This document shows, piece by piece, positions 4,552-20,525 of a stretch of 32,000 nucleotides of DNA (its first letter is position 1; every line of letters starts with the position of its first letter). Source of the DNA: Sinorhizobium meliloti (GTDB taxonomy: Bacteria > Pseudomonadota > Alphaproteobacteria > Rhizobiales > Rhizobiaceae); assembly GCF_017876815.1 (NCBI RefSeq), contig NZ_JAGIOS010000001.1:450001-482000 (forward strand), given 5' to 3'. The notes beneath the pieces are model-generated. The model made no database searches. It was not told the origin of the DNA and was given only the letters and a program-made list of their open reading frames with translations. The position numbers and the translations under genes are program-made.

Positions 4552-4576
4552 CGAAACTAAGCGCTCAGAGATGCGT
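4552..4576 (+). promoter_or_regulatory. Near-consensus EcfG-type promoter (GAAAC-N16-CGTT, one mismatch in the -35)
   Basis: gaaac at 4552-4556, 16-nt spacer, cgtt at 4573-4576. It sits 39 nt upstream of the ATG at 4615. Confidence 0.3.
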
Positions 4577-4614
4577 TGATCCGGCATACGAGAATACGAC
4601 GAAGGAGCCCGACC

Positions 4615-4881: not shown

Positions 4882-5135
4882 ACGCAGCTCGCGTGGCTAT
4901 CTTCCGGTCAGGCGCCGGTGGCGCTCGCCGGCGGCCGGTCGGTGCCGCTTATCAGTCGACGCATCTGGTCCATGGCAGAGATCATCGCGCGCGGAGCCCG
5001 AAACATCCGGACCATTGACCATCGCTTGACAACGACAGCCAAAGGCCAGAAAACACGTTCCATGGGGTTGCGATCACCCCACGAGGCGACAGCCGAAGCA
5101 TCGCGTCCGATAAACCGCCAGGCGGAGGACGCGCC

Positions 5136-5285
5136 ATGTCTTCACTTCTCGAAATTTCCCCCGAAAAGCTTGCCCGCTTCATAGGCACCCCGAACTGCCC
5201 GGTCCTCATCGCCGTGCGCTGGTGCCGTGACGCGACTGATGAGATACACACATGGCCGTCGCCGAAGAAGGGAGCGTGGAATTGA
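5136..5285 (+). pseudogene. 49-codon remnant resembling the N-terminus of rhodanese-domain/ChrB-type chromate resistance proteins
   Basis: GGAGGAC SD, then ATG at 5136. The translation is MSSLLEISPEKLARFIGTPNCPVLIAVR..., after which resemblance is lost and a stop follows at 5283-5285. It overlaps the chrA start in another frame. The assignment rests on recalled family N-termini, not on a search. Confidence 0.35.
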
Positions 5286-6772: not shown

Positions 6773-7974
6773 ATGAAGGCGGTGCAAAGCATTCATCCGG
6801 CCACCTATCTTTTTGCGGCGCGCGCCTTACGCGATTTTGGCGACGGGTTCGTCGCCATTCTGTTGCCGGTCTATCTGCTTGCTTTGGGATTTTCGCCGCT
6901 GCAGGTCGGCGTCATCGCGACCGCATCGCTCTCCGGCTCCGCACTCTTGACGATCGCGATCGGATTCCTCGGTGCGCGCCGTGATCTCCGCGGCTTGCTC
7001 CTGGCCGCCGCCGGCCTGATGGTCGCCTCCGGTGTCGCCATGTCTATCGTCAATGATTACGCGCTCCTGCTGGTGGTCGCCTTTGCAGGTACGATCAATC
7101 CATCGGCAGGCAGCGTGAGCGTCTTCGTCCCACTGGAGCATGCGGTGCTTACCCGCGAAGTGGCGAGTGCCGAGCGGACGCGCATGTTCGCTCGCTACAG
7201 CCTCGCCGGAGCGCTCGCAAGCGCCGTCGGGGCGCTCGCGGCAGCTCTACCGGATTTCATGACGACCTTCGGCTCGGGCAACTGACCGCCATCAAGCTGA
7301 TGTTCGTTGTCTACGCGTTTTTAGGTCTGGCTGGCGCAGTACTTTATGCCCGCATGCCTCCGCGCATCACCCGCGGCGAGCCCGCGAAAGCAGCACTTGG
7401 CCCTTCGCGCGCTATCGTATTCAAGCTCGCAGCCCTGTTCAGCCTCGATGCATTCGCTGGCGGGTTCGTGGTGCAGTCGTTGCTCGCCCTGTGGCTGTTC
7501 GAGCAATTCAATCTGTCGCTCGCGGAAGCCGGGGTGTTTTTCTTCTGGTCGGGCGTGCTGTCGGCCTTCTCTTTTCCTGTCGCCGCATGGTTATCGAAGC
7601 GGGTTGGCCTCATCAACACGATGGTGTTCACTCACATCCCATCGAGCATCGCCCTGATGCTGGCAGCATTCGCGCCTACCTTGCCGCTGGCGCTTGCCTT
7701 GCTATTGATACGTGCGGCACTCTCGCAAATGGATGTTCCGACGCGTTCATCCTATGTGATGGCGGTCGTGACCGAGGCGGAACGCGCCGCGGCCGCAAGC
7801 TTCACCTCGGTGCCGCGCAGTCTCGCCGCAGCGGTCAGCCCTGCACTGGCAGGCGCTCTCTTCGCTGCTTCGTTTCGTGCTTGGCCGTTCCTAATCTGCG
7901 CCGCGCTGAAGATCACCTACGACGTCCTGCTCTTGCTGCAGTTCCGACACCACAAGCCACCTGAGGAATACTGA
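6773..7974 (+). pseudogene. MFS transporter interrupted by a frameshift near 7270-7285 (track ORFs 6773-7285 and 7300-7974)
   Basis: The first ORF encodes about 6 TM helices and stops at TGA 7283-7285. The other frame is open from before 7240 and reads ...GQLTAIKLMFVVYAFLG..., continuing into another 6 TM helices. Together they make one 12-TM MFS protein. Confidence 0.6.
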
Positions 7975-7996: not shown

Positions 7997-8021
7997 GGAA
8001 CCACGCCGCGGCTGGCCCGTT
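7997..8021 (+). promoter_or_regulatory. Perfect EcfG/RpoE2-type promoter GGAAC-N16-CGTT
   Basis: ggaac at 7997-8001, 16-nt spacer, cgtt at 8018-8021. It sits 26 nt upstream of the ATG at 8047 and is intergenic. Confidence 0.7.
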
Positions 8022-8046
8022 CTCCTTCTGCCGAAAGGAGAAGACG

Positions 8047-8229
8047 ATGAGTACCAAGGATACCAATGCCACTCCGGAACAGTCGGAACCAGCCGACGTC
8101 CGTCAGCCGGCAAACCGAAAGAAGCATCGGGACGAGGAGTCGATCGCACCACCAGCGGTCCAGCCTCCAGGGGCAAAGGACACAAGTGAGAAACCCGAAG
8201 TGAACCCGGTCACCGGCGGGGCGTTGTAG
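8047..8229 (+). CDS. 60-aa hydrophilic, Pro/Glu/Lys-rich protein (hypothetical; probable stress-induced)
   Basis: AAAGGAG SD lies 6 nt before the ATG, and an EcfG-type promoter sits immediately upstream. There is no hydrophobic segment. Confidence 0.6.
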   Translation: MSTKDTNATPEQSEPADVRQPANRKKHRDEESIAPPAVQPPGAKDTSEKPEVNPVTGGAL

Positions 8230-8241
8230 CGCTCGCCGCGC

Positions 8242-8610
8242 CTATTTGACCACCTGCACGACGGTGCGGCTCTTCACATCCGCGATGACGCGCTTCTCGT
8301 TGACCACCGCAAAACCATAGCGCCTGTCGGCCGGAACCGTATTGAGAAAGACTGTTTCAGGCACCGGTTTGCCGACGGATATCTGTTCCTGCAGCACAAG
8401 CGGCCGTTGCGGAAATGGCTGCAGTTCGACGTATTCCGTCACGCCTGGCGGCGGCGGATCGATCGCCGCACCCTCAACGGGCCCTGCGACAGCCGCCACG
8501 GTCGTATCGGCAGCGCTGATTTCGTTTGTGCTTTGCGCTTGGGCAGGAGCCGCGGTCAAGAAAACCGCAACACCCAATGCAACGGAGCTCTTGACGAGTA
8601 CAATTGTCAT
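8242..8610 (-). CDS. DUF1236-like secreted protein
   Basis: ATG at 8610 with a GGAG SD. The signal peptide ends AAPAQAQ. The C-terminal part, VPETVFLNTVPADRRYGFAVVNEKRVIADVKSRTVVQVV, matches the DUF1236 pattern as I recall it. Confidence 0.7.
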   Translation of the reverse strand: MTIVLVKSSVALGVAVFLTAAPAQAQSTNEISAADTTVAAVAGPVEGAAIDPPPPGVTEYVELQPFPQRPLVLQEQISVGKPVPETVFLNTVPADRRYGFAVVNEKRVIADVKSRTVVQVVK

Positions 8611-8805
8611 GAGAGCTACTCCAGCTACGAATCCCTTCTCATGAAGAATCGCCTGCCGAGAGCTTTGTTCCGGCGTGCCTGCGGCATCAGACCTTGGTCC
8701 TACACGGGAAGGTTAAAGGTCCTAGGACCGTTGCACGCTGCTCCTCGTGACGCATATCGCTCTGAGACGACCACGGCGGCATCCTCGTCAGCCGTCCACG
8801 TCGTC

Positions 8806-8858
8806 TGAAGGTCCCGGAGCCAACGCGATTGTCCCTTCTAAACGCTCCGGGACCTTCA
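8806..8858. repeat. 14-bp perfect inverted repeat with 25-nt spacer
   Basis: tgaaggtcccggag (8806-8819) and ctccgggaccttca (8845-8858). It lies 26 nt downstream of the beta-propeller gene stop. It may act as that gene's terminator, but there is no U-tract on the minus strand. Confidence 0.6.
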
Positions 8859-8883
8859 TTTCCGTCCATATACGGGGGACCGT

Positions 8884-9528
8884 CTAAGCGGAGACCCGGC
8901 TTGGCCTGCGCACGGCCCTCACCTTCCCGCTGCTTCCTCCGCCACAGTAAAACCGGTCTCCGCCATCGGATTCGAGGCCGGAAACGCCTACACCCGGGGG
9001 CATCTCGAGCGTTTCGAGGACTTCTCCCGTTTCCGGGTCAAGGCGCCTCAGGTCGCTCTCGTCGCCTTCCCATGTGGCATGCCAGAGCTCGCCGTCGACC
9101 CAGGTGACGCCGGTGACGACTCGGTTGGATTCGATGGTGCGGAGAATCTTCCCGGTGTCGGGATCGACCTGGTGGATCTTCCGCCCTCGATAGTGGCCCA
9201 CCCAGAGCGTTCCTTCAGCCCAGGCGAGGCCTGAATCACCGCCCTCGGCAGGCGCCGGAATGGTGGCAAGCACGCGGCCGGTCGCCGGATCGATCTTCTG
9301 GATACGATCCTCTGCAATCTGGTACAGATGCTCACCGTCGAAGGCCGTTCCCGCATGTGCGGCGACATCGATCGAGCGCACCGTCTTGCCGCTCTCCGGA
9401 TCGAGGGCGTTCAGCCTGTCGCCGGAGGCGAACCAGACATGCCGGCCATCGAAGGTGACGCCGGCCACCTGCCCGGTATTCGGGAAAGGTCCGTATTCCT
9501 GGAGAATTTCTGCTTTCGATCGTTTCAT
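8884..9528 (-). CDS. Cytoplasmic beta-propeller repeat protein (glutamine cyclotransferase-like)
   Basis: ATG at 9528 with a GAGGA SD. Repeated blades carry DPxTGK/R motifs (LDPESGKTVRSI, IDPATGRVLATI, VDPDTGKILRTI, LDPETGEVLETL). No signal peptide. Confidence 0.7.
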   Translation of the reverse strand: MKRSKAEILQEYGPFPNTGQVAGVTFDGRHVWFASGDRLNALDPESGKTVRSIDVAAHAGTAFDGEHLYQIAEDRIQKIDPATGRVLATIPAPAEGGDSGLAWAEGTLWVGHYRGRKIHQVDPDTGKILRTIESNRVVTGVTWVDGELWHATWEGDESDLRRLDPETGEVLETLEMPPGVGVSGLESDGGDRFYCGGGSSGKVRAVRRPSRVSA

Positions 9529-9561
9529 TTTTCCGTCCTCGTCGCTGTAATGTCTCGCATC

Positions 9562-10785
9562 CTAGTCGCTCGGTAGCGGGCCCGGGAGTAACAAGACTGT
9601 CGGGAAGCCCAGGACGGGCGGGGTCATCCAGCGAAGCGCCCGTCCGCGGCCGAAGGACTGCACCTTGCCGGCCGACGCAAGCTGCTCGAGTGCCCGCTGC
9701 ACGGTGCGCGGGCTCGCCCCGAGCGCAATCGCCAGCGCCGAGCTCGACCACGATTCGCCGTCGGCAAGGAAGGCAAGCACCGCCGCATGCTGGTCTTCGA
9801 CGGGCGGCGCCAGCACGACGATCTCACCGGCGGCGCGGAGTGAGAGCGCGAAACCCTGCTTCGTCGCCCGCACCTCCGCCAGAGACCGAAGCTCTGCCCG
9901 AAGGCGTCCGATCTCCACGCGCAACCGCGCGCGGTGGGATTCGTCTGCATGTCTCGCACGGAAGGCGCGCGCTAGGAGCGTTGCTCTCGGCACGTCTTCC
10001 GGCCAGGCTTCGCCGAGCGCACGCGCAAGCGCGAAGAGCACCGGACGCGTGGCGAGCGAGACCACGCGCTTTTCGTTCCGCACCACATTGCGGCAGGCAT
10101 CCACCACGAGTGCCCCGGAAGAGAGCAGCGTTTCGACTTCCTCGATGAGGAGAGACCGCTCACCGCCGCTGCCGATCAGGCGCGCGACCGGCGCATCCAG
10201 CACGAGCGATGCGCTTTCGACCTCAGCCGTCAGTGCCGGGATGTCGGCTTCGCGCGCGGCGCGTTCGGCTCGGGCGAGCGATATCCGCGCGGCTTTCGCC
10301 TGCAGACGCCGTATGGCGATGCCGGCGATGACCAGTTCGCGGGCCGCCCGCGTCGCCGGGGGGAGCGGCATGCCGGAGTCGAGCTCCGCAAGCGCGCGTT
10401 CGGCCTCGTCCAGGCGGCCGATGAGAAGCAGGCGCCGGGCCTCGAGATTGCGCGCATGCGCGGCATTGACGTGGTCGCCATGCGCTTCGAGGGTCGATCT
10501 CGCCGCTTCGAGCGTTTTCGTGGGCCAGCCGAGATCCCGCGAGACGAGAGCGATCTCGGCCTCGGCGACGATGCAGCGCGCGCGCGCCACCGCCTGCCTC
10601 TGGCCGAAGGCATGCGCAGCACTTCTGAGAAGGGTCTTCGCCCGGCCGAAATCGCCGAGCTGCGCCATCGCGATGCCCCGAAGCGCGAGCGCATGGGCGT
10701 CGTCGCGCAAAGCCACGCGGTTCAGTACGCCGAGAAGATCGCCGGCCGCGAGCGCCCGTGCCGCAGCGGTGATCAGCGAGTCCAT
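9562..10785 (-). CDS. Putative transcriptional regulator: N-terminal TPR-like helical repeats, central OmpR/SARP-like winged helix, C-terminal HTH
   Basis: ATG at 10785. The central part reads VVSLATRPVLFALARALGEAWPEDVPRATLLARAF...RLRVEIGRLRAEL. The C-terminal part reads SSSALAIALGASPRTVQRALEQLASAGKV. The gene is 33 nt upstream of the beta-propeller gene on the same strand. Confidence 0.65.
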   Translation of the reverse strand: MDSLITAAARALAAGDLLGVLNRVALRDDAHALALRGIAMAQLGDFGRAKTLLRSAAHAFGQRQAVARARCIVAEAEIALVSRDLGWPTKTLEAARSTLEAHGDHVNAAHARNLEARRLLLIGRLDEAERALAELDSGMPLPPATRAARELVIAGIAIRRLQAKAARISLARAERAAREADIPALTAEVESASLVLDAPVARLIGSGGERSLLIEEVETLLSSGALVVDACRNVVRNEKRVVSLATRPVLFALARALGEAWPEDVPRATLLARAFRARHADESHRARLRVEIGRLRAELRSLAEVRATKQGFALSLRAAGEIVVLAPPVEDQHAAVLAFLADGESWSSSALAIALGASPRTVQRALEQLASAGKVQSFGRGRALRWMTPPVLGFPTVLLLPGPLPSD

Positions 10786-10903
10786 CGAAATCCCGTCACA
10801 CTTGTCACTCTCACCGTTCGATCTCCGGCTCTAGTCTGGGTTCCTGTCGGTCGAGCAACCCGCCCCCGGGCAATGTACGACGACAAATGGCCAAAGGAGA
10901 AGA

Positions 10904-11719
10904 ATGATGACGGCACATGCAATCGGAACACGGGAAGAATGGCTGGCTGCGCGGCTCGACCTGCTCGAGGCCGAAAAGAACCTGACGCGGCGAAGCGACG
11001 AGCTGGCGAAGTGGCGCCGGGAATTGCCTTGGGTACGGATCGACAAGGCGTACCGGTTCGAGACTGACGAAGGCGAGGCCTCGCTGCGCGACCTCTTCAA
11101 GGGGTGTTCGCAACTCCTCGTCTACCATTTCATGTTCGGGCCCGATTATACCGCCGGCTGCCCGTCCTGTTTGGCGATCGCCGATGGTTTCAACGGGATC
11201 GTCGCTCATCTCGAAAACCACGACGTCGCCTTCTCCGCGGTCTCGCGCGCGCCGCTTGCGAAGCTCACGGCCTATAAGCGACGGCTGGGATGGAGCTTCC
11301 CCTGGGCTTCTTCGGACGACGGCGCCTTCAACCGTGATTTCTGCGTCTGGTTCACCGAACAACAACAGCGCGAGGGCGGCATCGAGTATAATTTCCGCCG
11401 CGAGCCGCCAATCCCCGAGCAACCGGCGTCCGAGCCGCTCGCGGGCAGGACAGTCCGGGAATGGGACGCAAGCGGCAGCGAGGGGCCGGTCGCACAGATC
11501 GCAGCCATGACGGGGACCGACGTCGCCACCTATACACGCGACAGGCCCGGTGTCAGCGCCTTCGCGCTCGAAGACGGCATCGTCTACCACACCTACTCCA
11601 GTTATGCGCGTGGACTGGATGGGCTATGGGGCATGTATCAGTGGCTCGACCGGACCCCCAAGGGACGCAACGAGAACGGCATCTGGTGGCGCCGCCACGA
11701 CGAATATGCCCAAGGGTGA
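10904..11719 (+). CDS. DUF899 thioredoxin-like family protein
   Basis: AAAGGAG SD before the ATG at 10904. The translation reads REEWLAARLDLLEAEKNLTRRSDELAKWRRELPWVRIDKAYRFETDEG...LLVYHFMFGPDYTAGCPSC..., the characteristic DUF899 signature. Confidence 0.85.
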   Translation: MMTAHAIGTREEWLAARLDLLEAEKNLTRRSDELAKWRRELPWVRIDKAYRFETDEGEASLRDLFKGCSQLLVYHFMFGPDYTAGCPSCLAIADGFNGIVAHLENHDVAFSAVSRAPLAKLTAYKRRLGWSFPWASSDDGAFNRDFCVWFTEQQQREGGIEYNFRREPPIPEQPASEPLAGRTVREWDASGSEGPVAQIAAMTGTDVATYTRDRPGVSAFALEDGIVYHTYSSYARGLDGLWGMYQWLDRTPKGRNENGIWWRRHDEYAQG

Positions 11720-11726
11720 CCGTCCG

Positions 11727-11996
11727 ATGCGGCTCGCAACGGGTACCGCCGCGCGTGGCCTGGCCGACTGGCTGGGCCTCGCCGCCGCACCGGCTTTCGC
11801 GGTCATGGCGCTTCTGACCGCCGGCGGTGATGCGGATATCTGCTCATCGATACAAGGTGCTTCGCTGCTGAGCGGAATGAGCAGCATGTATTTGCTGATG
11901 TCAGTTTTTCACCTGGCGCCATGGCTGAAGCTGATTTCCGCAAGACGGGAAGCGCCAACCGATCCGGCGCTTCCGCGGATCACTCCGCCGACTTGA
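11727..11996 (+). CDS. Small two-TM membrane protein (hypothetical)
   Basis: ATG lies 7 nt after the DUF899 stop. Two hydrophobic helices are present (WLGLAAAPAFAVMALL, MSSMYLLMSVFHLAPWL). Its 3' end overlaps the convergent gene by 17 nt. Confidence 0.45.
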   Translation: MRLATGTAARGLADWLGLAAAPAFAVMALLTAGGDADICSSIQGASLLSGMSSMYLLMSVFHLAPWLKLISARREAPTDPALPRITPPT

Positions 11997-12345
11997 ACTG
12001 CAGCGTGAACACGTTGCCCGCGATCTCATCGGAGAGTGATTTCGAGAACTCCAGCGGCACGCAATTCTGCAGCGCCTCGGTGGCGGCGGTCACGAAAGCC
12101 TGCCGCTGCTTTTCGTCGCCGTTCACTTCGATCGCGGTCGGCCGGGGCGGCCCCATCAACGTACCGTCGCCGCGGAACCCGAACCTGAGGGTGACGAAGG
12201 AATCCTTGAAGCCTTGCGGCGGAGTCCAGCATCTGCCAAGCGCGGCTCCAAGGTCGGCCACCGTATAAAGCGGCTCGGCGTGGAGCCTCTCAGCCCCCGA
12301 AACGGCAAGGATTAGACCAGTGCAAGCCAGTCTCGCCATCTGCAT
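11980..12345 (-). CDS. Secreted/periplasmic hypothetical protein
   Basis: ATG at 12345 (alternative at 12339). There is a short signal peptide, ARLACTGLILAVSGAERLHA, followed by a globular mature region with two Cys. Confidence 0.55.
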   Translation of the reverse strand: MQMARLACTGLILAVSGAERLHAEPLYTVADLGAALGRCWTPPQGFKDSFVTLRFGFRGDGTLMGPPRPTAIEVNGDEKQRQAFVTAATEALQNCVPLEFSKSLSDEIAGNVFTLQFKSAE

Positions 12346-12383
12346 CGTCTTCAGCCCCTATCCCAGAGGATGGTGAAGCTAGA

Positions 12384-12427
12384 GCGGGATGAGGAAAAGT
12401 GTGTGCAGTTTTCCGCCCGCATCCCGC
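12384..12427. repeat. Nested palindromic element (REP/RIME-like intergenic repeat)
   Basis: The outer stem is gcgggatg (12384-12391) pairing with catcccgc (12420-12427). The inner stem is ggaaaa (12393-12398) pairing with ttttcc (12409-12414). The core gaaaagtgtgtgcagttttcc resembles a motif I recall as recurrent in rhizobial intergenic regions. Confidence 0.4.
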
Positions 12428-12546
12428 GTCTCAACCTACTAGAATCGATCACGTTCATGCCTTTAGGCCGACGGCCTGAAACCATCATGATCTAGCAGAT
12501 TCGGAAACGCCTGCAACGGGCCCGTATTCACATACGGACTTGCGCC

Positions 12547-13203
12547 TCAGCGGCGCTTCGTTTTCAGCGCCGCATGGCTCGTGAGGCTGAGAAAGACGGC
12601 CAGGAACATGATGCCGAGGATCTTGAAGCCCTCCTCGACGAAAACCAGTCCGGCGAAGTTTTCCGAAACCGCGTCCACCAGGAAGGAACAGCCGAGCGAG
12701 GCGACGGCGGCAGCAAGCAGGACCCACTGAATATTCCGGCGGATAAACCAGGCGTGATAACAGAGCGTCGCCAGCAACAGCATATGGGGAACAAGGACAA
12801 ACGGCTCCGGGACCCCGGCCGTGGCAATCGCCTCATGAAGCATCAGGAGATCGTCGATGCCCATCAACCCGGAAAAGAGCCCGCCGGCGAGAAGCGTGCG
12901 TCGCAGATGCGGCGCGTCGTAGCCGGCTCCGGACCAATAGGCCTGGAGAGCCGCGATCCCTCCCGTAAACCAGAGAATGACGCCGAGATTGGAGACCAGC
13001 CCGAAATATTTCGGCTGCCCGGCAATCGCGTTGGGGTCGCGTACGAGGTCGTAGTAGTCGATGCCAAAAAGCCGGTCGGCGATGACGATCGACGTCAACA
13101 GCACGATGCAGGAGCAGATGACGAGGAGGGCGTAGTGGAAATCACCCTGTATTCGCCTCTCCCGTGGCAGGGCTTTGGCCGTGGTGATGCCTTCGACATC
13201 CAT
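12547..13203 (-). CDS. Integral membrane protein (hypothetical, about 6 TM)
   Basis: I chose the internal ATG at 13203 because GGAGGA lies 5 nt upstream. There are multiple hydrophobic helices and no recognisable family motif. Confidence 0.6.
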   Translation of the reverse strand: MDVEGITTAKALPRERRIQGDFHYALLVICSCIVLLTSIVIADRLFGIDYYDLVRDPNAIAGQPKYFGLVSNLGVILWFTGGIAALQAYWSGAGYDAPHLRRTLLAGGLFSGLMGIDDLLMLHEAIATAGVPEPFVLVPHMLLLATLCYHAWFIRRNIQWVLLAAAVASLGCSFLVDAVSENFAGLVFVEEGFKILGIMFLAVFLSLTSHAALKTKRR

Positions 13204-13346
13204 CTCGATCCTCCGCAACAGATGCCCCAGCATGCCACCGCGGACGGTCAGCTGCCTTTGTGACAGTTTTATGACAAGGCGCGACCGGCGGTTGCGGACC
13301 TCCCGGCAAGGTGGTCCGGGACGCGCGGCACGGTCCCGCACACAAC

Positions 13347-13371
13347 GGAACCTTGCAGGTTTTCGGACGTT
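13347..13371 (+). promoter_or_regulatory. Perfect EcfG/RpoE2-type promoter GGAAC-N16-CGTT
   Basis: ggaac at 13347-13351, 16-nt spacer, cgtt at 13368-13371. It is intergenic, about 140 nt upstream of the ATG at 13510. Confidence 0.65.
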
Positions 13372-13509
13372 AATCGTTGCGTCGTGTGCTCACCGGCCCG
13401 CGACAAGGTCGCAATTTACTTGCGGTGGTACGGAACCCCTCCCCTAGGGTCATGCTGATTGGGGATCTATGCAAAGGCGAATTTGCAGGCGGGGTGACGG
13501 AGAGAAAGG

Positions 13510-13962
13510 ATGTATGCCATGAACCAGCACGAAGAATTGCGGGAGAAGCCGCCGCTCGATCCTGCCACCGGCCAACCGACGCCGCGGGACCCGGAAGTGC
13601 CCGTGACCAGATCGCGCCGTAGCAGCTGGCCTTTGCTGGTCATCATTCTTGCCGGTCTGATACTCGCGTTGATCGCCTGGCTTCCGGCAGAGCTGACCAG
13701 GGATGCCGAGAACGAGCCGGTCGCGCCGGGCCAAACCGAGACGACCCCGTCCGACGCCACCCCGCCGGCCGCTCAACCCGCGCCTACGGACCAGGCCGCG
13801 CCTACGAATGAGGCCGCACCTACGGACCAGGCGACGCCGCCCGCCGGGGGAACCACGGCGCCGGCAGCACCTGAGACCCAGACCCCGGCAGCGCCCGAGA
13901 CGCCGGCAGCACCGGCAGCACCTGCCACGCCGGCACAGCCGCAGAGCGCTCCTGCGCAGTAG
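13510..13962 (+). CDS. Single-pass membrane protein with Pro/Ala/Thr-rich repetitive C-terminal tail
   Basis: GGAGAGAAAGG precedes the ATG. The TM helix is WPLLVIILAGLILALIAWL. The tail carries APTDQA/APTNEA/APTDQA and AAPET repeats. Confidence 0.65.
   Translation: MYAMNQHEELREKPPLDPATGQPTPRDPEVPVTRSRRSSWPLLVIILAGLILALIAWLPAELTRDAENEPVAPGQTETTPSDATPPAAQPAPTDQAAPTNEAAPTDQATPPAGGTTAPAAPETQTPAAPETPAAPAAPATPAQPQSAPAQ
13780..13833. repeat. 18-bp x3 in-frame tandem repeat (APTDQA-APTNEA-APTDQA)
   Basis: The units are gcgcctacggaccaggcc, gcgcctacgaatgaggcc and gcacctacggaccaggcg. Confidence 0.85.
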
Positions 13963-13982
13963 AACGACGAACGCCCCTTGTC

Positions 13983-14022
13983 GAGCGGGATGAAGCGGCT
14001 TGCCGCGCCATCCCGCTCTTCT
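13983..14022 (+). terminator. Hairpin terminator after the PAT-rich protein gene
   Basis: Stem gagcgggatg (13983-13992) pairs with catcccgctc (14009-14018), followed by ttct. Confidence 0.5.
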
Positions 14023-14072
14023 GCAGTTAGATCCTCCCCGAGGGGTCGAGTGACGGAGCGGGTTCGTCTTTC

Positions 14073-14645
14073 ATGAACGAAATCTTTGCCGACATCCTTG
14101 CCGATACCCAAACACCTTATCCGGTGATATTCGCGCGGCTCTTCGGCGCGGTCCTGCTCGGCGCAATGATCGGCGTCGAGCGTGAGAAGCGGCAGCGGCC
14201 GGCAGGGCTCAGGACCCATATTCTCGTCAGCCTCGCCTCCGCGATCTTCGCGGTGGTCGCCATCGAAAGCGTGCACATGAAAAGCCTTTCCGGCCCCGAG
14301 GTGCGCATCGATCCCATTCGCGTCGTGGAAGCCGTAACCGCGGGAGTGGCCTTTCTCGCTGCCGGCATGATCGTCTTTTCGAAGGGGGAGGTGAAGGGGC
14401 TGACGACCGGCGCCGGCATGTGGCTTGCCGGCGCCGTCGGTCTCTCGGTCGGCTTCGGCTTCTGGCTGATCGCGGCCTTCGCCGCCGTTGCGAGCCTCGT
14501 CGTGCTCTTTGTCCTCGGCCGGCTGGAGGTGGCGCTGCAGTGGAAGGCACCGGACGAGTTCTACAACACGGGTTCTACGTCGCAGAAGAATGAAGATGCA
14601 GGAGAAGACCGGCCCCGAGACCGGGACGATATACGCGAACGTTGA
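14073..14645 (+). CDS. MgtC/SapB family membrane protein
   Basis: The translation reads FARLFGAVLLGAMIGVEREKRQRPAGLRTHILVSLASAIF...TAGVAFLAAGMI...GLTTGAGMWLAGAVG, the classic MgtC N-terminal domain. Confidence 0.85.
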   Translation: MNEIFADILADTQTPYPVIFARLFGAVLLGAMIGVEREKRQRPAGLRTHILVSLASAIFAVVAIESVHMKSLSGPEVRIDPIRVVEAVTAGVAFLAAGMIVFSKGEVKGLTTGAGMWLAGAVGLSVGFGFWLIAAFAAVASLVVLFVLGRLEVALQWKAPDEFYNTGSTSQKNEDAGEDRPRDRDDIRER

Positions 14646-14669
14646 TCGGAGCCGCCAATGGCGGTTCGA

Positions 14670-14918
14670 TCAGCGCAGTTCGGAAATTGGGGTTGTTTGA
14701 TACCCGCCCAAGGGGAGCGGACGGTTATCGAAGACCGCCCTCCCCTCCTTCAGGCCATGAATGACAGCAACGGCCTTGCGGGCTTCGTCCGGCGTCGCGA
14801 ACAGCTGGCCTTCCAGGGACCAGACGCTGAATTTCACGGCCATGAACCGCAACCGTCCGTTCTCCGGAATCAGCGCGCCGACAGCCTCGCCGGCAAACTC
14901 CACCGTCTGCTTGCTCAT
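14670..14918 (-). CDS. 82-aa hypothetical protein
   Basis: The internal ATG at 14918 has GAGGGAGGAG about 10 nt upstream. The remainder of the track ORF upstream has no SD. Confidence 0.45.
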   Translation of the reverse strand: MSKQTVEFAGEAVGALIPENGRLRFMAVKFSVWSLEGQLFATPDEARKAVAVIHGLKEGRAVFDNRPLPLGGYQTTPISELR

Positions 14919-15072
14919 CGTGTTTGAAACTCCTCCCTCGGCCGGGCAAAGCCCAAGCGGGCCGACTCTTGCGGTCAGCCGCAGGAGAAACACGCGAAGC
15001 GCAGGTTGGTTCCGGCGCCGAACGGAAAAAGCTTGAGCCATGAAGGATAAGGACCTCCGGATGGAAACCGCT

Positions 15073-16326
15073 CTATGCGAGGAAGCGCTCCGGCCGATAC
15101 GGCGTGATGTCGATCACAGGCTTCTCACCCGTCATCGCCTGTGCCAGCGCCCGGCCGGTGACCGGCCCGAGCGTCATGCCGTGATGCGCGTGGCCGAAGG
15201 CGAACCAGAGGCCTTCGTGCCGCGGAGCCTTACCGATAACAGGCATCATGTCGGGCGTGCAGGGGCGCGCGCCCATCCACGGTTCCTCGTCGCGCCGCTC
15301 GGCGAGCGGGAAGAACTCGCGAGCGACCCGCTCCGCTCGTGTCAGCTGCACCGGCGTTTTCGGCGCATCGCGCAACGCGAACTCGGCGCCGGTCGTCAGC
15401 CGGATACCGCGCAGCATCGGCGCCAGGAAATATCCCTTCTCGGCGTCGAGCACCCAGTTGTTGAGCTGAGCGCCCTCCCTGATGCCATAATGCATGTGGT
15501 AGCCGCGCTTCACGGCGAGCGGGAAATGGTAGCCGAGCTTTCGCGTCACCGTGTCGGCCCACGGCCCGAGCGCGACGACGACCTCCCGGGCCTCCAAAGG
15601 GCCGTCCGGTGTGGCGACACGCCAGCCCGCCCCTTCCAGAATATGCTCCAGCGTCGCCGCATCGCCGGAAACGAGCCGGCCGCCGAGCGACTGGAAGTAG
15701 GCGAGATATGCCTTGTTCAGGCTGTGCGGATCGCGGATCGACCACGGATCGGTCCAGCGCAGGCCGCCGGCGAGTTCGGCCTGGATGGATGGTTCGATCG
15801 TCTTCAGCTCGCTGGTCGAAAGCTTCTGGTGATTGACTCCGAAGCCGGCGGAAAGCCGCTCTGCGTCCTTATAGGCCGCGTCCCGCTCCTTTTCGGTGCG
15901 GAAAACCTTCATCCAGCCATCCTTGCGAATGAGGTCGCCGGCGCCGGATGCGTCGATCAAGTCCTGATGTTCCGCGATCGAATGTTCGATAAGCGGTGCA
16001 TAAAGATGGGCTATCTTCTGGTGCTGGGTGAAGCCCGAGTGCCACCAGTAGCGCGCGAGGAACGGCACGAGACTGGGCAGCGCACGGAAGTGATAGCTGG
16101 CGTCGATCGTGTTGTTCAGGGCGTAACGGAAAAGCGCTCCGAAATTGTGCGGGAAGCCGTAGGGGAAGACGCCCTCGCGCTGTATCAGGCCTGCATTGCC
16201 GTAGGACGTCTCCTCCCCCGCACCGCGCCGGTCCAGAAGCACCACCGACTTTCCAAGCCGAGCCAGATGGATCGCGCTGGAAATGCCGACAATGCCGGCA
16301 CCGAGAACCACTACGTCCGTCTTCAT
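15073..16326 (-). CDS. FAD-dependent oxidoreductase (D-amino-acid dehydrogenase/DAO family)
   Basis: ATG at 16326 with a GGAGAG SD. The N-terminal Rossmann motif is DVVVLGAGIVGISSAIHLARLGKSVVLLD. Length and C-terminal pattern fit DadA-like enzymes. Confidence 0.85.
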   Translation of the reverse strand: MKTDVVVLGAGIVGISSAIHLARLGKSVVLLDRRGAGEETSYGNAGLIQREGVFPYGFPHNFGALFRYALNNTIDASYHFRALPSLVPFLARYWWHSGFTQHQKIAHLYAPLIEHSIAEHQDLIDASGAGDLIRKDGWMKVFRTEKERDAAYKDAERLSAGFGVNHQKLSTSELKTIEPSIQAELAGGLRWTDPWSIRDPHSLNKAYLAYFQSLGGRLVSGDAATLEHILEGAGWRVATPDGPLEAREVVVALGPWADTVTRKLGYHFPLAVKRGYHMHYGIREGAQLNNWVLDAEKGYFLAPMLRGIRLTTGAEFALRDAPKTPVQLTRAERVAREFFPLAERRDEEPWMGARPCTPDMMPVIGKAPRHEGLWFAFGHAHHGMTLGPVTGRALAQAMTGEKPVIDITPYRPERFLA

Positions 16327-16495
16327 GTGCAGATGCTCTCCTATCCGTCAAACCGCCGTGCCGCGTCACTTCACGACGACAACTTCCAGGGATTTCGTGG
16401 GAGGTGGTGTCCTGACATGCGCGGCGGGTATTCGCATGAATAGCCAAGCGAGCCCGGCAGGGCAAGGGAACAGAGCGTCACACCGCAACTGGAAA

Positions 16496-16520
16496 GGGGT
16501 GGAGACGAGAGCTCCACCCC
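16496..16520 (-). terminator. Rho-independent terminator after the DUF1328 gene
   Basis: Stem ggggtggag pairs with ctccacccc (9 bp). On the minus strand it is followed by TTTCCAGTT. Confidence 0.6.
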
Positions 16521-16566
16521 TTATCGTTCGGCACCAATTTGCGGGCGGCAAGCCCCGCCTGGAGGC

Positions 16567-16731
16567 TCACGTTCGCCGGATGAGACCCGCTACGAGCGAG
16601 ATCACGAGGAATATGAGGAACAGGAAGAACAGGACCTGCGCAATTCCCGCCGAAGCGCCGGCAATTCCGCCGAAGCCGAGCACACCGGCGATGATCGCGA
16701 CGATCAGAAACACGAGAGCGTAATAGAGCAT
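16567..16731 (-). CDS. DUF1328 (UPF0391, YtjA-like) small membrane protein, 54 aa; below the ORF-track cutoff
   Basis: Hand translation gives [54 protein letters not shown]. The ATG at 16731 is preceded by AAGGAG, and the stop TGA is at 16567-16569. Confidence 0.75.
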
Positions 16732-16764
16732 CTGCTATCTCCTTGTCTGCGCTACCGAAATCGA

Positions 16765-16790
16765 AACGCGTGTCGGCTCGCCTTTGTTCC
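16765..16790 (-). promoter_or_regulatory. Perfect EcfG/RpoE2-type promoter GGAAC-N17-CGTT (minus strand)
   Basis: On the plus strand, aacg at 16765-16768 and gttcc at 16786-16790 are separated by 17 nt. The element is 34 nt upstream of the DUF1328 ATG. Confidence 0.7.
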
Positions 16791-16900
16791 CGGATCGGCC
16801 CCGGCTGCGCGGCGCGAGGGTGTTTGCGTGGTTCAGAAAGCATTGATTAACCAAGAGAACCGCAAATAGAACGGAACTTATATTTCCCGTGCAAGCGAGA

Positions 16901-16926
16901 GGAACCTTCGAAAGGCGCTTGGCGTT
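16901..16926 (+). promoter_or_regulatory. Perfect EcfG/RpoE2-type promoter GGAAC-N17-CGTT
   Basis: ggaac at 16901-16905, 17-nt spacer, cgtt at 16923-16926. It is 31 nt upstream of the ATG at 16957. Confidence 0.7.
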
Positions 16927-16956
16927 GTTCGCATTGAAAGAATTTCCGGGAAGACA

Positions 16957-17151
16957 ATGAAGATACCATCGCGACATATTTGGAAGACCGTAAACGAGGC
17001 CGGCCGTTATCAGGCGGATCTGCGCGATCGGAATCTTCATATAGGCAGGACGATGCGCGACCTTCAGCGCCACTCCGAGGAAAAGTACAACAAGCGGATC
17101 CAGGCACTGCTTGAAACTCTGGAACGTGCCGAACGCCAGTCGCATAAATGA
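16957..17151 (+). CDS. 64-aa hydrophilic, helix-prone protein (hypothetical; probable stress-induced)
   Basis: I prefer this ORF over the overlapping minus-strand ORFs because a perfect EcfG promoter sits directly upstream and a GGGAAG SD-like element is present. The product is charged, with no TM segment. Confidence 0.5.
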   Translation: MKIPSRHIWKTVNEAGRYQADLRDRNLHIGRTMRDLQRHSEEKYNKRIQALLETLERAERQSHK

Positions 17152-17205
17152 CGATCGCTCCGTGTCCCTCCGGCAACAGGCATGCGCCCTGGCGTCGTGC
17201 CGCGC

Positions 17206-17230
17206 GGAACAAAAGGCGCCAATCGGCGTT
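17206..17230 (+). promoter_or_regulatory. Perfect EcfG/RpoE2-type promoter GGAAC-N16-CGTT
   Basis: ggaac at 17206-17210, 16-nt spacer, cgtt at 17227-17230. It is 212 nt upstream of the lipoprotein ATG at 17442. Confidence 0.65.
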
Positions 17231-17441
17231 TTGGCGACAATAACAAGCGCCGCGGCGGCGGCATCCATGGGAGATGGGAATGCAAGCCTCGGCGGCGCCT
17301 GTTGTGATCACCCCTCCAGTGGGGATCGACGCTCAGATGAGCGTCGCAGCGGCTCCAGCCATGGCCTCGGCGCGCATTTCCGCCGAAGACTGTGCTCGGC
17401 AACTCCAGCAGTTCTGTATCAACCCTGAATAGGAACGCGTC

Positions 17442-17690
17442 ATGAAGAAGCTACTCGTCGTCGCAAGCCTGATCCTTCCCCTGGCTGCCTGCACGCAAAC
17501 CGAACGAGGTGCGGCGATCGGCGCTGCCTCCGGCGGTATCATCGGTGGTGCCATATCGAATGATGTCAGGGGAGCTGCGGTAGGCGCCGCTGTCGGCGGT
17601 GTCGCCGGAGCCCTTATCGGTCGTGCGAACGAGCCCGGCTATTGCGTCTATCGCGACCGCTACGGCCGCCGCTATACCGCGCGCTGCTGA
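17442..17690 (+). CDS. Glycine-zipper (17-kDa-antigen-like) outer-membrane lipoprotein
   Basis: The lipobox is ILPLAAC. The glycine-zipper segment is GAAIGAASGGIIGGAI...GAAVGAAVGGVAGALIG. The Cys-containing tail is YCVYRDRYGRRYTARC. Confidence 0.75.
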   Translation: MKKLLVVASLILPLAACTQTERGAAIGAASGGIIGGAISNDVRGAAVGAAVGGVAGALIGRANEPGYCVYRDRYGRRYTARC

Positions 17691-17701
17691 TACGAACGGC
17701 C

Positions 17702-17730
17702 AGCCGAGCCGCGCTCCGGCCGGCTCGGCT
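17702..17730. terminator. Bidirectional hairpin between the convergent lipoprotein and nepR genes
   Basis: Stem agccgagccg (17702-17711) pairs with cggctcggct (17721-17730), a 10-bp stem. On the plus strand it is followed by cgtttcgtc. Confidence 0.55.
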
Positions 17731-17768
17731 CGTTTCGTCGGTGGCCGACTGGCGTGAACGCTGCGACG

Positions 17769-17957
17769 TTACTCGCGCGGTCGTTCTTCGGCCTCATCCA
17801 GACGGTGCAGAAGGTCCAGAAAGTGCTGCGGCACCGGCTCGTTCTCCACCGCCTGGTAGAGCGCCTTCAGCTTCGAAGCGATTTGACCGTGAGGTTGCGT
17901 CGTTTCGGCGGGGGCGACCCCCGCTGGCACGGCGCCTTTCTTTGAGGACTTCTTCAT
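17769..17957 (-). CDS. nepR: NepR-family anti-sigma factor (62 aa)
   Basis: The internal ATG at 17957 gives MKKSSKKGAV...IASKLKALYQAVENEPVPQHFLDLLHRLDEAE. This is the NepR signature (L..Y.....EP.P..F..LL..LD). The gene is divergent from phyR. Confidence 0.8.
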   Translation of the reverse strand: MKKSSKKGAVPAGVAPAETTQPHGQIASKLKALYQAVENEPVPQHFLDLLHRLDEAEERPRE

Positions 17958-18214
17958 CTTCCCGTTCCGTGCGGGCTGCAGTTCCGCGCCATTTTCAGAT
18001 CCGCGGTAACCTGATGTGGCGCTTTTCGTGCCTGTCGGGTTCAGCTTCGGCCAATCCCATCCAAGGCCGCACCAGCCGGTCGCCCAATTCATTTGCCGCG
18101 ACTGTTTCTCAAGGCTTTCCATAAACCGGAATACGTGCTCAAAACATTTGAGGTATCCTGCTGCGCGCCGTCGGCAAGACAGGAACATATGCATAATAGT
18201 TTAGGAAGGTCTAA

Positions 18215-19012
18215 ATGCCACTTTCCACAAGGATTGCGCCCCACCTCCCCTATCTTCGGCGTTACGCCCGTGCCGTCACCGGCTCGCAAGCAGCAGGCGA
18301 TGCCTATGTCGCTGCCGTGCTCGAAGCGCTGATCGACGATCTCGAGCTTTTTCCAGCCGCGTCGAACGATCGCATCGGTCTTTACAAGCTGTTCTGTTCC
18401 CTGTTCGAAAAACTCAAGATCGACCGAACCCAGCTCGCCTCGCCTTTCGCATGGGAGCAGAGGGCGGCCTCCAATCTCTCCCTCATCGCGCCGCCCCAGA
18501 GACAGGCATTCCTGCTCGTCGCCCTCGAGGGTTTCTCGACCGGCGAGGCGGCGGAAATCATGGGGCTTGACCAAGGCGCCTTCGGCAAGCTGCTGACCAG
18601 CGCCTCGGAGGAGATTTCGCGCCAGATCGCAACCGACGTGATGATCATCGAGGATGAGCCTCTCATCGCGTTGGATATCGAGGACATGGTGACGAGCCTC
18701 GGTCACCGGGTCACCGGGATCGCCCGCACGCGCCGCGAGGCGCTTGATCTCTATCACCAGACATCGCCGAAAATGGTGCTTGCGGATATCCAGCTGGCCG
18801 ACGGCAGTTCGGGCATCGACGCGGTCAACGACATCCTGACGCAGGCGGCCGTACCGGTCATCTTCATCACCGCCTTTCCCGAACGGCTGCTGACCGGCAA
18901 GAAACCCGAGCCGGCCTTTCTGGTAACCAAACCCTTCAACCCGGAAACCGTGAAGGCGCTGATCAGCCAGGCTCTTTTCTTCGACGAACATGCGCAAGCC
19001 GGAGCGAGCTAG
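18215..19012 (+). CDS. phyR: PhyR-type anti-anti-sigma response regulator (sigma-like N-domain plus receiver)
   Basis: The N-terminus is MPLSTRIAPHLPYLRRYARAVTGSQ. The sigma region-4-like segment is QRQAFLLVALEGFSTGEAAEIMG. The receiver domain reads MIIEDEPLIALDIEDMV...VLADIQLADGSSGIDAV...VIFITAFPE...TKPF. Confidence 0.9.
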   Translation: MPLSTRIAPHLPYLRRYARAVTGSQAAGDAYVAAVLEALIDDLELFPAASNDRIGLYKLFCSLFEKLKIDRTQLASPFAWEQRAASNLSLIAPPQRQAFLLVALEGFSTGEAAEIMGLDQGAFGKLLTSASEEISRQIATDVMIIEDEPLIALDIEDMVTSLGHRVTGIARTRREALDLYHQTSPKMVLADIQLADGSSGIDAVNDILTQAAVPVIFITAFPERLLTGKKPEPAFLVTKPFNPETVKALISQALFFDEHAQAGAS

Positions 19013-19038
19013 ATAACCCTTGAAGTCAGCATGAAGGG

Positions 19039-20169
19039 TCAGCCCGGCAACTGGCGTTCCGGCTGGGGCAGCAGTATCTGCTCGAATATGATCATCGCGA
19101 TCAGCGACAGCGGAAAGGCGAGGAGCGCCCCGACAGCACCCCACATCCACGTCCAGAAAATGATCGCGACGAAGACCAGAAACGGATTGATATCGAAGCG
19201 TTGGCCGAGGATGGCGGGCACCAGCAGATTTTCCATGGCGAGGTGAACGGTGAAGAAGGCGACCGCCGGGGCGATGGCCACGATGAGCGCATCATGCGTC
19301 ATCAGCCCGCCGACGACCAAAGAGAGGGTCATGAAGGTGACGCCGAGATAGGGAATGAAACTCGAGACGAAGGCGAACAGCCCCCAAAGCGGGGGCATCG
19401 CCAGTCCGCCGACCAGCGCAATGACCATGGTTATGAAGCCCAGCGCCAGATAGATCAGGCTGGCGGTCGAGAAATATTGCGTAAGCGCATCCTCGAGGGC
19501 GTTCATGACTCGGATCGCGCTCAGGCGACCTTCGCGGCTGGGAAAAGCGAGAATGATCGTGCTGCGCAGCTGAACGCGCCCGAGCAGGAAGAGTACAAGG
19601 GCGGCCAGGAAGATCAGGGTCTGCACCAAAGCGGGCGTCAGGCTCGCCGCCGCGCCGCCGATCAGCGGTCCCGCATTCTTGACGATGACGTCGGCAAAAG
19701 CCTCTTCTCCGCTGCCGCGGGCAAGCGCTACGTTTACCCATTCGAAGCGCTGCAGATAGGGCAGTATCCGCTCCATGAGGCCTTCGACGAGCCGCGGCGC
19801 CTCGCGCGCGACCTCGGTGATCGGCCAGAGGATGGCATTGACCAGGTATGACAGGCCAAGCAGAAAGCATAGCGCCAGCAAAAGGCCGCCGAACATGGGC
19901 GGCAGCCCGAACCGCGCCAGTTCATCGGCAGCGCGGCCGAGAACGATGCCGATGACGACGGCGAGCGTGATCGGCAGGAGGATCGCTTCCATCGTATAGA
20001 CGACTGCCGCGCAGGCGATCACGAACAGGCCGATGACGCTCCAGGCGCCGGCGAGATCGATGTTGTCGCGTTTTCTGGCGACGATCGCCGATGCCTCTGC
20101 CAGAGCGATTTCCCTCTCCGCTTCGCGCTTTCGTCGACGCTCGGCCGTCGTCCGCCCGGCTGTGTCCAT
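19039..20169 (-). CDS. AI-2E family (PerM/UPF0118) transporter
   Basis: ATG at 20169 (the track start at 20175 is GTG). There are multiple TM helices, and the C-terminal motif reads ENLLVPAILGQRFDINPFLVFVAIIFWTWMWGAVGALLAFPL. Confidence 0.85.
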   Translation of the reverse strand: MDTAGRTTAERRRKREAEREIALAEASAIVARKRDNIDLAGAWSVIGLFVIACAAVVYTMEAILLPITLAVVIGIVLGRAADELARFGLPPMFGGLLLALCFLLGLSYLVNAILWPITEVAREAPRLVEGLMERILPYLQRFEWVNVALARGSGEEAFADVIVKNAGPLIGGAAASLTPALVQTLIFLAALVLFLLGRVQLRSTIILAFPSREGRLSAIRVMNALEDALTQYFSTASLIYLALGFITMVIALVGGLAMPPLWGLFAFVSSFIPYLGVTFMTLSLVVGGLMTHDALIVAIAPAVAFFTVHLAMENLLVPAILGQRFDINPFLVFVAIIFWTWMWGAVGALLAFPLSLIAMIIFEQILLPQPERQLPG

Positions 20170-20270
20170 CGGCACCTACCTCTCAAACGCTCGTGCGGCG
20201 AACAGCCCGTTCGCGGATGCAGGACGGAGGTGGCGCACTCCACCGCAGGATGCCCCCCGCGAAGCGTTGC

Positions 20271-20441
20271 TCAATGTTGCTCAGGCGGGAACAGGTGGAG
20301 CGTGGCGGAAAGCAGGCCAAGCCCACCGATGATGATCAGCAATGTGTAGGCCACGTCCTCCGGCGTCCGCGGGAAGAGACCCATGCCAAGTACCAGCACG
20401 GCAAGCGCTGACACGACGAGCCGTGGCACCCAGTAGAGCAT
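20271..20441 (-). CDS. 56-aa two-TM membrane protein (hypothetical); below the ORF-track cutoff
   Basis: Hand translation gives MLYWVPRLVVSALAVLVLGMGLFPRTPEDVAYTLLIIIGGLGLLSATLHLFPPEQH. GGAGG lies 7 nt before the ATG at 20441, and an EcfG promoter sits directly upstream. Confidence 0.5.
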   Translation of the reverse strand: MLYWVPRLVVSALAVLVLGMGLFPRTPEDVAYTLLIIIGGLGLLSATLHLFPPEQH

Positions 20442-20472
20442 GTCTCAACCTCCATTGCGGAACGCACCGATA

Positions 20473-20498
20473 AACGCCGCAACTGCGGAAATCGTTCC
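20473..20498 (-). promoter_or_regulatory. Perfect EcfG/RpoE2-type promoter GGAAC-N17-CGTT (minus strand)
   Basis: On the plus strand, aacg at 20473-20476 and gttcc at 20494-20498 are separated by 17 nt. The element is 32 nt upstream of the ATG at 20441. Confidence 0.7.
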
Positions 20499-20525
20499 TG
20501 CGCGACACGCGTGTAAGGACGGCAG

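Follow-up and report, generated by a model that had tools for sequence, protein, structure and literature searches.

A 32,000-nucleotide stretch of the Sinorhizobium meliloti chromosome (contig NZ_JAGIOS010000001.1, positions 450,001 to 482,000), referred to throughout as the window, covers the segment with the nepR gene rsiA2, on the minus strand, and the phyR gene rsiB2, and very probably carries a conserved island of general-stress-response targets that are driven by promoters of the sigma factor RpoE2 and lie around the constitutively expressed rsiA2 and rsiB2. The partner-switch mechanism of this response is established for S. meliloti in the literature: stress leads to the phosphorylation of RsiB1 and RsiB2, which then bind RsiA1 and RsiA2 and so release RpoE2, a sigma factor of extracytoplasmic function (ECF) group ECF15, whose holoenzyme reads GGAAC (-35) and CGTT (-10) spaced 16–17 nucleotides (nt) apart, with transcription starting 8–9 nt after CGTT. 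Six perfect promoters would in this way drive short units (SMc_ORF_5, SMc00800-SMc00799, SMc00796, an open reading frame (ORF) of 64 amino acids (aa), SMc00795 and SMc00792-SMc00793), SMc00809, SMc00798 and perhaps SMc00806 would be added by as many as three imperfect ones, and the products would mostly be small envelope or hydrophilic proteins. For five of the perfect promoters and for that of SMc00809, start sites and RpoE2 dependence are shown by published data; the promoters of the 64-aa ORF, SMc00798 and SMc00806 are presumed to be active.

A pattern search of both strands of the window for GGAAC-N16/17-CGTT gave exactly six matches. These have the same coordinates as in a first-pass annotation made from the sequence letters, which had put the chance expectation at about 0.5 and had placed every match between genes, 26–212 nt from a start codon; in agreement with this, 100 dinucleotide-preserving shuffles of the window gave a mean of 0.55 matches, and all six motifs lie between called genes and face the start codon that comes next on their strand, at distances from the end of CGTT of 25, 138, 33, 30, 211 and 31 nt in site order. 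The cluster itself is therefore confirmed.

Whether such a cluster could be a chance build-up of a short motif in GC-rich intergenic DNA, devoid of promoter function, is a fair question for a motif in which no more than nine bases are fixed. In the window, one-mismatch variants are found at chance frequency (16, against 0.55 x 27, or about 15), and in 550 kb of Rm1021 pSymA and pSymB (eleven evenly spaced 50-kb pieces, hence megaplasmid and not chromosomal DNA) a reversed control motif turns up as often as the perfect one (11 versus 10), so that chance may account for about half of the perfect matches elsewhere. The chance level of the one-mismatch variants indicates, on the other hand, that the excess in the window is specific to the perfect motif; none of the 100 shuffles reached six matches (maximum 3), and the intergenic position and correct orientation hold for every site. 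For five sites chance is ruled out by mapped starts at the right distance together with RpoE2-dependent expression, and the motifs are retained despite diverged flanks in the orthologous regions, in up to 64 of 64 cases, which leaves this alternative with a negligible probability.

Published start sites and RpoE2 dependence

The values for transcription starts and for induction were taken from Schlueter et al. 2013 (PMC3616915, Tables S3 and S18–S20) and Lang et al. 2018 (PMC6180224, Data Set S1), and positions in the window (y) were converted to those of Rm1021 (x) by x = 833792 - y, with a 1-bp shift left of about position 8000. Four of the six motifs, those of SMc00792, SMc00795, SMc00796 and SMc00800, are given letter for letter as RpoE2-class promoters in Table S19 of PMC3616915, and upon RpoE2 overexpression their units are induced by log2 3.9–5.0 (PMC3616915, PMC6180224). 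The start sites mapped by RNA-seq fall 8–9 nt past CGTT for five of the six perfect promoters (Table 1), the fifth being that of SMc_ORF_5, an ORF newly found in PMC3616915, which has a leader of 17 nt and whose sense-strand intergenic probe rises by log2 1.15 upon RpoE2 overexpression in the reanalysis by Lang et al. 2018 (PMC6180224). The downstream genes of two units are co-induced, SMc00799 by log2 2.2–2.6 and SMc00793 by log2 2.1–2.3.

Several observations weigh against this explanation. All of the expression evidence is literature-derived and based on overexpression, and SMc_ORF_5 is induced only 2.2-fold. In the Schlueter map (PMC3616915) the 64-aa ORF promoter lacks a start, the identifiers 02122 and 02123 being consecutive across the site, and the 5' half of its intergenic region contains no induced probe set in the published arrays, on which the 64-aa ORF was not separately probed. 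Furthermore, overexpression of RpoE6 weakly induces SMc00792 (log2 0.68), SMc00800 (log2 0.91) and the intergenic probe of SMc_ORF_5 (log2 0.64), which means that recognition of these promoters is not strictly exclusive to RpoE2.

The last point lends some weight to the possibility that another ECF sigma factor, RpoE5 or RpoE6, mainly serves the promoters and that their RpoE2 dependence is indirect, especially as RpoE2 activates rpoE5, which encodes a second ECF15 member, and as Lang et al. 2018 (PMC6180224) point to a likeness between the RpoE6 and ECF15 motifs. Induction of the same genes by RpoE2 is, however, 10–30 times that by RpoE6, the regulons of the other ECF sigma factors comprise at most 10 genes and that of RpoE6 about 40 (Lang et al. 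2018, PMC6180224), and the motif equals the RpoE2 consensus, which was validated by 5'-RACE. We therefore regard a leading role of RpoE5 or RpoE6 as very improbable, and RpoE2 as the sigma factor that mainly serves these promoters.

Three further sites in the window, which the first-pass annotation did not include, deviate from GGAAC-N16/17-CGTT at one or two positions. That of SMc00809 is a published RpoE2 promoter. The candidate of SMc00798 lies 70 nt upstream of the ATG at 14918 (ribosome-binding site GGGAGGAG) and has the -10 element GTGTTT, which is accepted in the published RpoE2 promoters SMb20255 and SMa5002; the gene is induced by log2 3.25 upon RpoE2 overexpression and is without a mapped start site (PMC3616915, PMC6180224), and of its 42 orthologues, 25 have a perfect and 41 a relaxed motif at the corresponding place. 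For SMc00806, induced by log2 1.17 (PMC6180224), the candidate shares its -10 element (CGATTC) with SMa0280, whose promoter is published; a start site for the candidate was not found in the published maps, and its assignment as a promoter is speculative. With the imperfect sites included, the cluster would widen to as many as nine promoters in 16 kb.

As to other published transcript and translation data, Sallet et al. 2013 (PMC3738161) reported 108 transcription units with an RpoE2 motif upstream of the 5' end. The promoters of the 64-aa ORF and SMc00798 are absent from the promoter tables of Schlueter 2013 and Lang 2018. The supplement of a ribosome-profiling study (PMC10117765) includes SMc00792 and SMc00798, and neither the 64-aa ORF nor SMc_ORF_5 is in the portion of it covered here. 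A second published 5' end near SMc00795, at Rm1021 816617 (window 17175), is situated just past the 64-aa ORF, and thus the 64-aa ORF and SMc00795 may be co-transcribed. The SMc00795 leader measures 203 nt (window 17239–17441), and roughly its initial 65 nt are conserved among Sinorhizobium species. It also contains a 52-aa upstream ORF, which was rejected as a gene, being unconserved (already in S. medicae the identity is down to 36%, with an E value of 0.04).

An RpoH1/RpoH2-type promoter (CTTACA-N16-ACGATTT, start site 813309, window 20483) is also listed in Table S19 of PMC3616915. It occupies 20483–20517 on the minus strand and overlaps the RpoE2 promoter of SMc00792, a gene which would accordingly have dual stress-sigma input.

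Promoter density and conservation of the island

The six perfect motifs amount to 0.48 motifs/kb across the cluster, about 26 times the background of 0.018/kb in the megaplasmid sample, where no 12.5-kb stretch holds more than 2 (Poisson P(>=6) = 1.6e-7). When the 88 published RpoE2 promoters that are linked to a start site (Tables S19 and S20, PMC3616915) are considered instead, clusters of at least four per 12.5 kb are found at five places. Only two of these are chromosomal, the rsiA2-rsiB2 locus and the rpoE2-rsiA1-rsiB1 locus, so that the chromosomal clusters coincide with both nepR-phyR loci; the other three are on pSymB, with 4–5 promoters per 12.5 kb and five in one of them (Rm1021 1372300–1381207, 251095–261354 and 83259–95314). 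The hot spot at rsiA2-rsiB2 is therefore real and not unique, and the pSymB clusters indicate that clustering is a general property of the RpoE2 regulon, not one restricted to nepR-phyR loci. The first-pass annotation had proposed such a hot spot, which both the motif density and the clustering of published promoters support, and had named an equally high density genome-wide as an argument to the contrary, which the sampled 550 kb do not provide. Its expectations that transcription would start close behind CGTT and depend on ecfG/rpoE2 are likewise matched, for five of the six sites, by the published starts and overexpression data, and its interpretation of the sites as part of the EcfG/RpoE2 stress regulon is supported, although it largely restates published knowledge.

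Conservation was assessed with SMc00797 (D-amino-acid dehydrogenase-like, DAO) as the anchor, for which 80 loci from different species were fetched. Gene order and orientation are kept in 66 of the 80, from Sinorhizobium, Ensifer, Pararhizobium and Rhizobium species, as p56 > AI-2E > phyR < nepR > GlyZip < p64 < DUF1328 > DAO > (SMc00798 >) SMc00800 <, where p56 corresponds to SMc00792, GlyZip to SMc00795, p64 to the 64-aa ORF and DUF1328 to SMc00796. These 66 loci contain 3–11 perfect motifs each. In the remaining 14, from Shinella and Mycoplana, DAO is present, the nepR-phyR neighbourhood is absent and there is at most one motif per locus. The conserved core has 0.685 motifs/kb versus 0.030/kb in its flanks (63 loci).

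At the level of single genes, a perfect motif was looked for on the correct strand within 350 nt upstream of each orthologue. It was present for SMc00800 in 64/64, for the 64-aa ORF in 63/63, for DUF1328 in 62/65, for GlyZip in 60/65 and for p56 in 51/53 cases, and for nepR in 0/65, phyR in 0/65, DAO in 1/66 and RidA in 0/51. In the spacers and flanks of the promoters, which have diverged, the top base has a mean frequency of about 0.5 (0.54 for the flanks of the 64-aa ORF promoter). A motif kept within diverged flanks is strong evidence that the motifs are under selection, that of the 64-aa ORF included. Left of SMc00800 synteny breaks outside S. meliloti, and SMc_ORF_5 is outside the conserved block.

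The interval between GlyZip and p64 is occupied in other genera (loci L008–L070) by additional motif-preceded genes that S. meliloti lacks, encoding a Cys-containing protein of 109 aa (39 loci), a protein of about 328 aa (25 loci) and one of about 314 aa (17 loci). Up to 10–11 perfect motifs per 21 kb occur in Pararhizobium loci.

The NepR-like protein and antisense transcription

The product of rsiB2 matches the NCBIfam PhyR model NF006623 with 383 bits (cut-off 240) and has the domains PF22029, PF22233 and PF00072, that is, a sigma-like N-terminal and a receiver C-terminal part, and rsiA2, which adjoins phyR divergently, matches NepR PF18557 with 52.3 bits (cut-off 25.7). No EcfG motif is found upstream of rsiA2 or rsiB2 either in the window or in 65 species. 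In the literature rsiA2 has served as an rpoE2-independent control with a 5'-RACE start site at 815620, and an RpoD-type promoter is predicted for rsiB2 (PMC3616915).

By homology, as judged from profile comparisons, the 64-aa protein is NepR-like. Its orthologues in 63 species are intact ORFs of 63–70 aa which share the pattern IWK...R...NLHIG.T.R.LY...LL..L...E, resembling the NepR core, and an hhalign comparison of 24 of them with 21 true NepRs from the same loci gave a probability of 96.8% (E 3e-10, 57 columns). When 177,635 PDB sequences were searched with the profile, the top two matches were the NepR chains 5uxx_B and 4qic_B, gap-free and with E values of 0.007–0.01. The Pfam NepR model PF18557 gives no hit for the S. 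meliloti protein and sub-threshold hits for three of ten orthologues (12.8–16.5 bits against 25.7). An exhaustive profile search with the alignment of the Sinorhizobium clade (E <= 0.001) returned 13 representative clusters, none of them a canonical NepR, and a search with the single sequence returned 13 clusters, all of them named "hypothetical"; the link to NepR thus rests on the profile-profile and PDB-profile comparisons. That the gene was missed can be explained by its being unannotated in Rm1021 and below the Pfam threshold. The N-terminal IWK motif is conserved in the 64-aa family and absent from NepR. AlphaFold2 models the protein as a single long helix (predicted local distance difference test 87, predicted template modelling score 0.41), which is neutral with regard to NepR likeness.

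Members of the family differ in the residues characteristic of NepR: orthologues from Ensifer, Pararhizobium and Rhizobium keep T-L-R-D-L-Y and, in part, P-x-P, whereas the Sinorhizobium clade, including the copy in the window, has M-R-D-L-Q without prolines and has lost the EP-x-P loop. One alternative is that the clustering is functionless, a relic of an ancestral, complete stress locus (phyR, an autoregulated nepR-ecfG operon and adjacent targets) that has lost its sigma gene, with the 64-aa gene as a decayed, formerly autoregulated nepR. The replacement of the key NepR tyrosine by Gln in S. meliloti fits such a history, and so do the lack of a sigma-factor gene in the window, the cargo between SMc00795 and the 64-aa ORF, which varies among genera, and the EcfG-type promoter of this NepR homologue, which resembles that of the nepR in the rsiA1-rpoE2 operon and which rsiA2 itself does not have. 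Against decay stands the intact state of the 64-aa ORF in 63 species, with conserved residues and a perfect promoter, which argues for continued selection, as well as a gene order maintained across genus-level divergence. We consider a functionless relic rather unlikely; it concerns, moreover, the origin of the cluster and is compatible with the function of the RpoE2 promoters proposed above.

In the published arrays the antisense strand of rsiA2, downstream of SMc00795, rises by log2 3.5–3.9 upon RpoE2 overexpression, and the sense probe of rsiA2 changes by log2 -0.88. The antisense RNA region (window 17691–18214, plus strand) continues from the RpoE2-dependent SMc00795. A strict terminator scan found no terminator between SMc00795 and nepR, and folding gives a GC hairpin of 12 bp and a weak U tract (17702–17730) as the sole separator of the two convergent genes, an arrangement conserved across related loci. 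These data suggest that RpoE2-driven antisense transcription may damp rsiA2.

The 64-aa protein, for its part, may feed back on the partner switch. It is conceivable, if somewhat doubtful, that it would constitute a third, stress-induced NepR-like component that binds RsiB1/RsiB2 or RpoE2 and exerts negative feedback, that read-through from SMc00795 antisense to rsiA2 would form a positive loop, and that the island would in this manner be part of the regulatory circuit.

Gene map and relation to known systems

The gene map (Table 1) is based on third-position GC, Pfam and the gene calls of identical public contigs; the PhyR protein is identical in many S. meliloti chromosomes, e.g., that of AK83 (CP002781.1). 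According to the map and to Pfam/NCBIfam family searches the window contains no sigma-factor gene, and the literature places rpoE2 (SMc01506) near 2.62 Mb, some 1.8 Mb from the window. The descriptions of DUF1328, the glycine-zipper lipoprotein, the AI-2E transporter, PhyR and NepR in the first-pass annotation are borne out by Pfam/NCBIfam, and the nepR-phyR pair it named is present, with the correction that nepR is on the minus strand and divergent from phyR. For the small targets SMc_ORF_5, SMc00798, SMc00792, SMc00809 and SMc00800 Pfam/NCBIfam returned nothing usable, and Rfam found no RNA family in the promoter cluster.

Table 1. Positions of promoters and genes in the window. Tables S19 and S20 are those of PMC3616915; start sites are given in Rm1021 numbering and, where stated, in window numbering; log2 values refer to RpoE2 overexpression.
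Feature	Coordinates	Strand	Description
RpoE2 promoter of SMc00809	4553..4577	+	GAAAC-N16-CGTT; published, Table S19, start site 829207, log2 1.06
SMc00809	4615-4881		88-aa secreted protein
Promoter of SMc_ORF_5	7997..8021	+	Perfect motif; start site SMc_TSS02145, 825762 = window 8030, 9 nt after CGTT
SMc_ORF_5	8047..8229	+	60-aa hydrophilic protein without family assignment
SMc00806	8242-8610		DUF1236
Weak candidate promoter of SMc00806	8647..8671	-	GGAACAA-N13-CGATTC
Promoter of SMc00800(-SMc00799)	13347..13371	+	Perfect motif; Table S19, start site 820413 = window 13379, log2 3.93
SMc00800	13510..13962	+	150-aa single-pass membrane protein
SMc00799	14073-14645		MgtC-family gene, downstream of SMc00800
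SMc00798	14670..14918	-	82-aa protein of unknown function
Candidate promoter of SMc00798	14989..15013	-	GGAACCA-N13-GTGTTT (GGAAC-N16-TGTT), TGTT replacing CGTT
SMc00796	16567..16731	-	54-aa DUF1328 membrane protein; PF07043, 57.6 bits
Promoter of SMc00796	16765..16790	-	Perfect motif; Table S19, start site 817036 = window 16756, log2 4.08
Predicted RpoE2-type promoter of 64-aa ORF	16901..16926	+	Perfect motif; conserved in 63/63 orthologues
64-aa ORF	16957..17151	+	Sinme_0445-type "hypothetical protein", unannotated in Rm1021; NepR-like by homology
Promoter of SMc00795	17206..17230	+	Perfect motif; Tables S19/S20, start site 816553 = window 17239, log2 4.02
SMc00795	17442..17690	+	82-aa glycine-zipper (OsmB-like) lipoprotein
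rsiA2 (SMc04884)	17769..17957	-	NepR anti-sigma factor
rsiB2 (SMc00794)	18215..19012	+	PhyR anti-anti-sigma response regulator
SMc00793	19039-20175	-	AI-2E family transporter
SMc00792	20271-20441	-	56-aa membrane protein
Promoter of SMc00792-SMc00793	20473..20498	-	Perfect motif; Table S19, start site 813327 = window 20465, log2 4.8-5.0

Two observations concern the left part of the window. A chrB-a RNA motif (Rfam RF03078, 81 bits) is located at 5059–5138 (plus strand), immediately upstream of chrA, a gene for a chromate transporter (5252–6694). The major facilitator superfamily permease gene SMc00807 (6773–7974, plus strand) is broken into two ORFs in different frames (6773–7285 and 7300–7974), and the 1-bp offset between the window and Rm1021 arises somewhere between 6694 and 8047; the split and the offset reflect either a frameshift or a strain difference.

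The system described here is identical to the published S. meliloti RpoE2 regulon (PMC3616915, PMC3738161, PMC6180224), with four of the six sites and the SMc00809 site in Table S19 and the fifth start in Table S3, and the finding is thus mostly known: the regulon, the consensus and most of these promoters have already been published. What Schlueter 2013 and Lang 2018 do not discuss is the clustering around rsiA2-rsiB2. The canonical rsiB1/rsiA1-rpoE2 locus, with four published RpoE2 promoters in 4.9 kb (PMC3616915), is like the window in having divergent phyR and nepR genes amid EcfG-dependent promoters. In contrast with a canonical phyR/nepR-ecfG locus, the window has no ecfG, its nepR and phyR are without the motif, and EcfG promoters drive the neighbouring small genes.

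The closest parallel to the 64-aa protein, drawn from published descriptions, is NepR2 of Sphingomonas melonis Fr1, a negative feedback regulator which binds PhyR and belongs to the EcfG regulon (Gottschlich 2019, PMC6599016). Like NepR2 and MexAM1_META2p0735 of Methylobacterium extorquens, the 64-aa protein is small, NepR-like, invisible to BLAST and encoded beside the core regulators, and it would likewise belong to the EcfG regulon. NepR and NepR2 have a functionally important Leu-Arg-x-x-Tyr/Phe, whereas the S. meliloti protein has Met-Arg-x-x-Gln. More broadly, RpoS in enterobacteria and SigB in Bacillus are single alternative sigma factors that activate many small genes of envelope or unknown function, SigB being itself controlled by partner switching; since the sigma families and promoter motifs are unrelated, this is a functional analogy only.

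In conclusion, what is new is modest: the conservation of the island across genera, two or three promoters beyond the six, the recognition of one target as NepR-like and a possible antisense loop. A second nepR-phyR pair within a target island that is intact over at least four genera provides a comparative set for the core regulon. If the overlooked NepR relative under an EcfG promoter is active, models of RsiA1/RsiA2 and RsiB1/RsiB2 would need another player. Finally, chromosomal RpoE2 clusters are present at both nepR-phyR loci, and one may ask why target genes have remained in linkage with their regulators.

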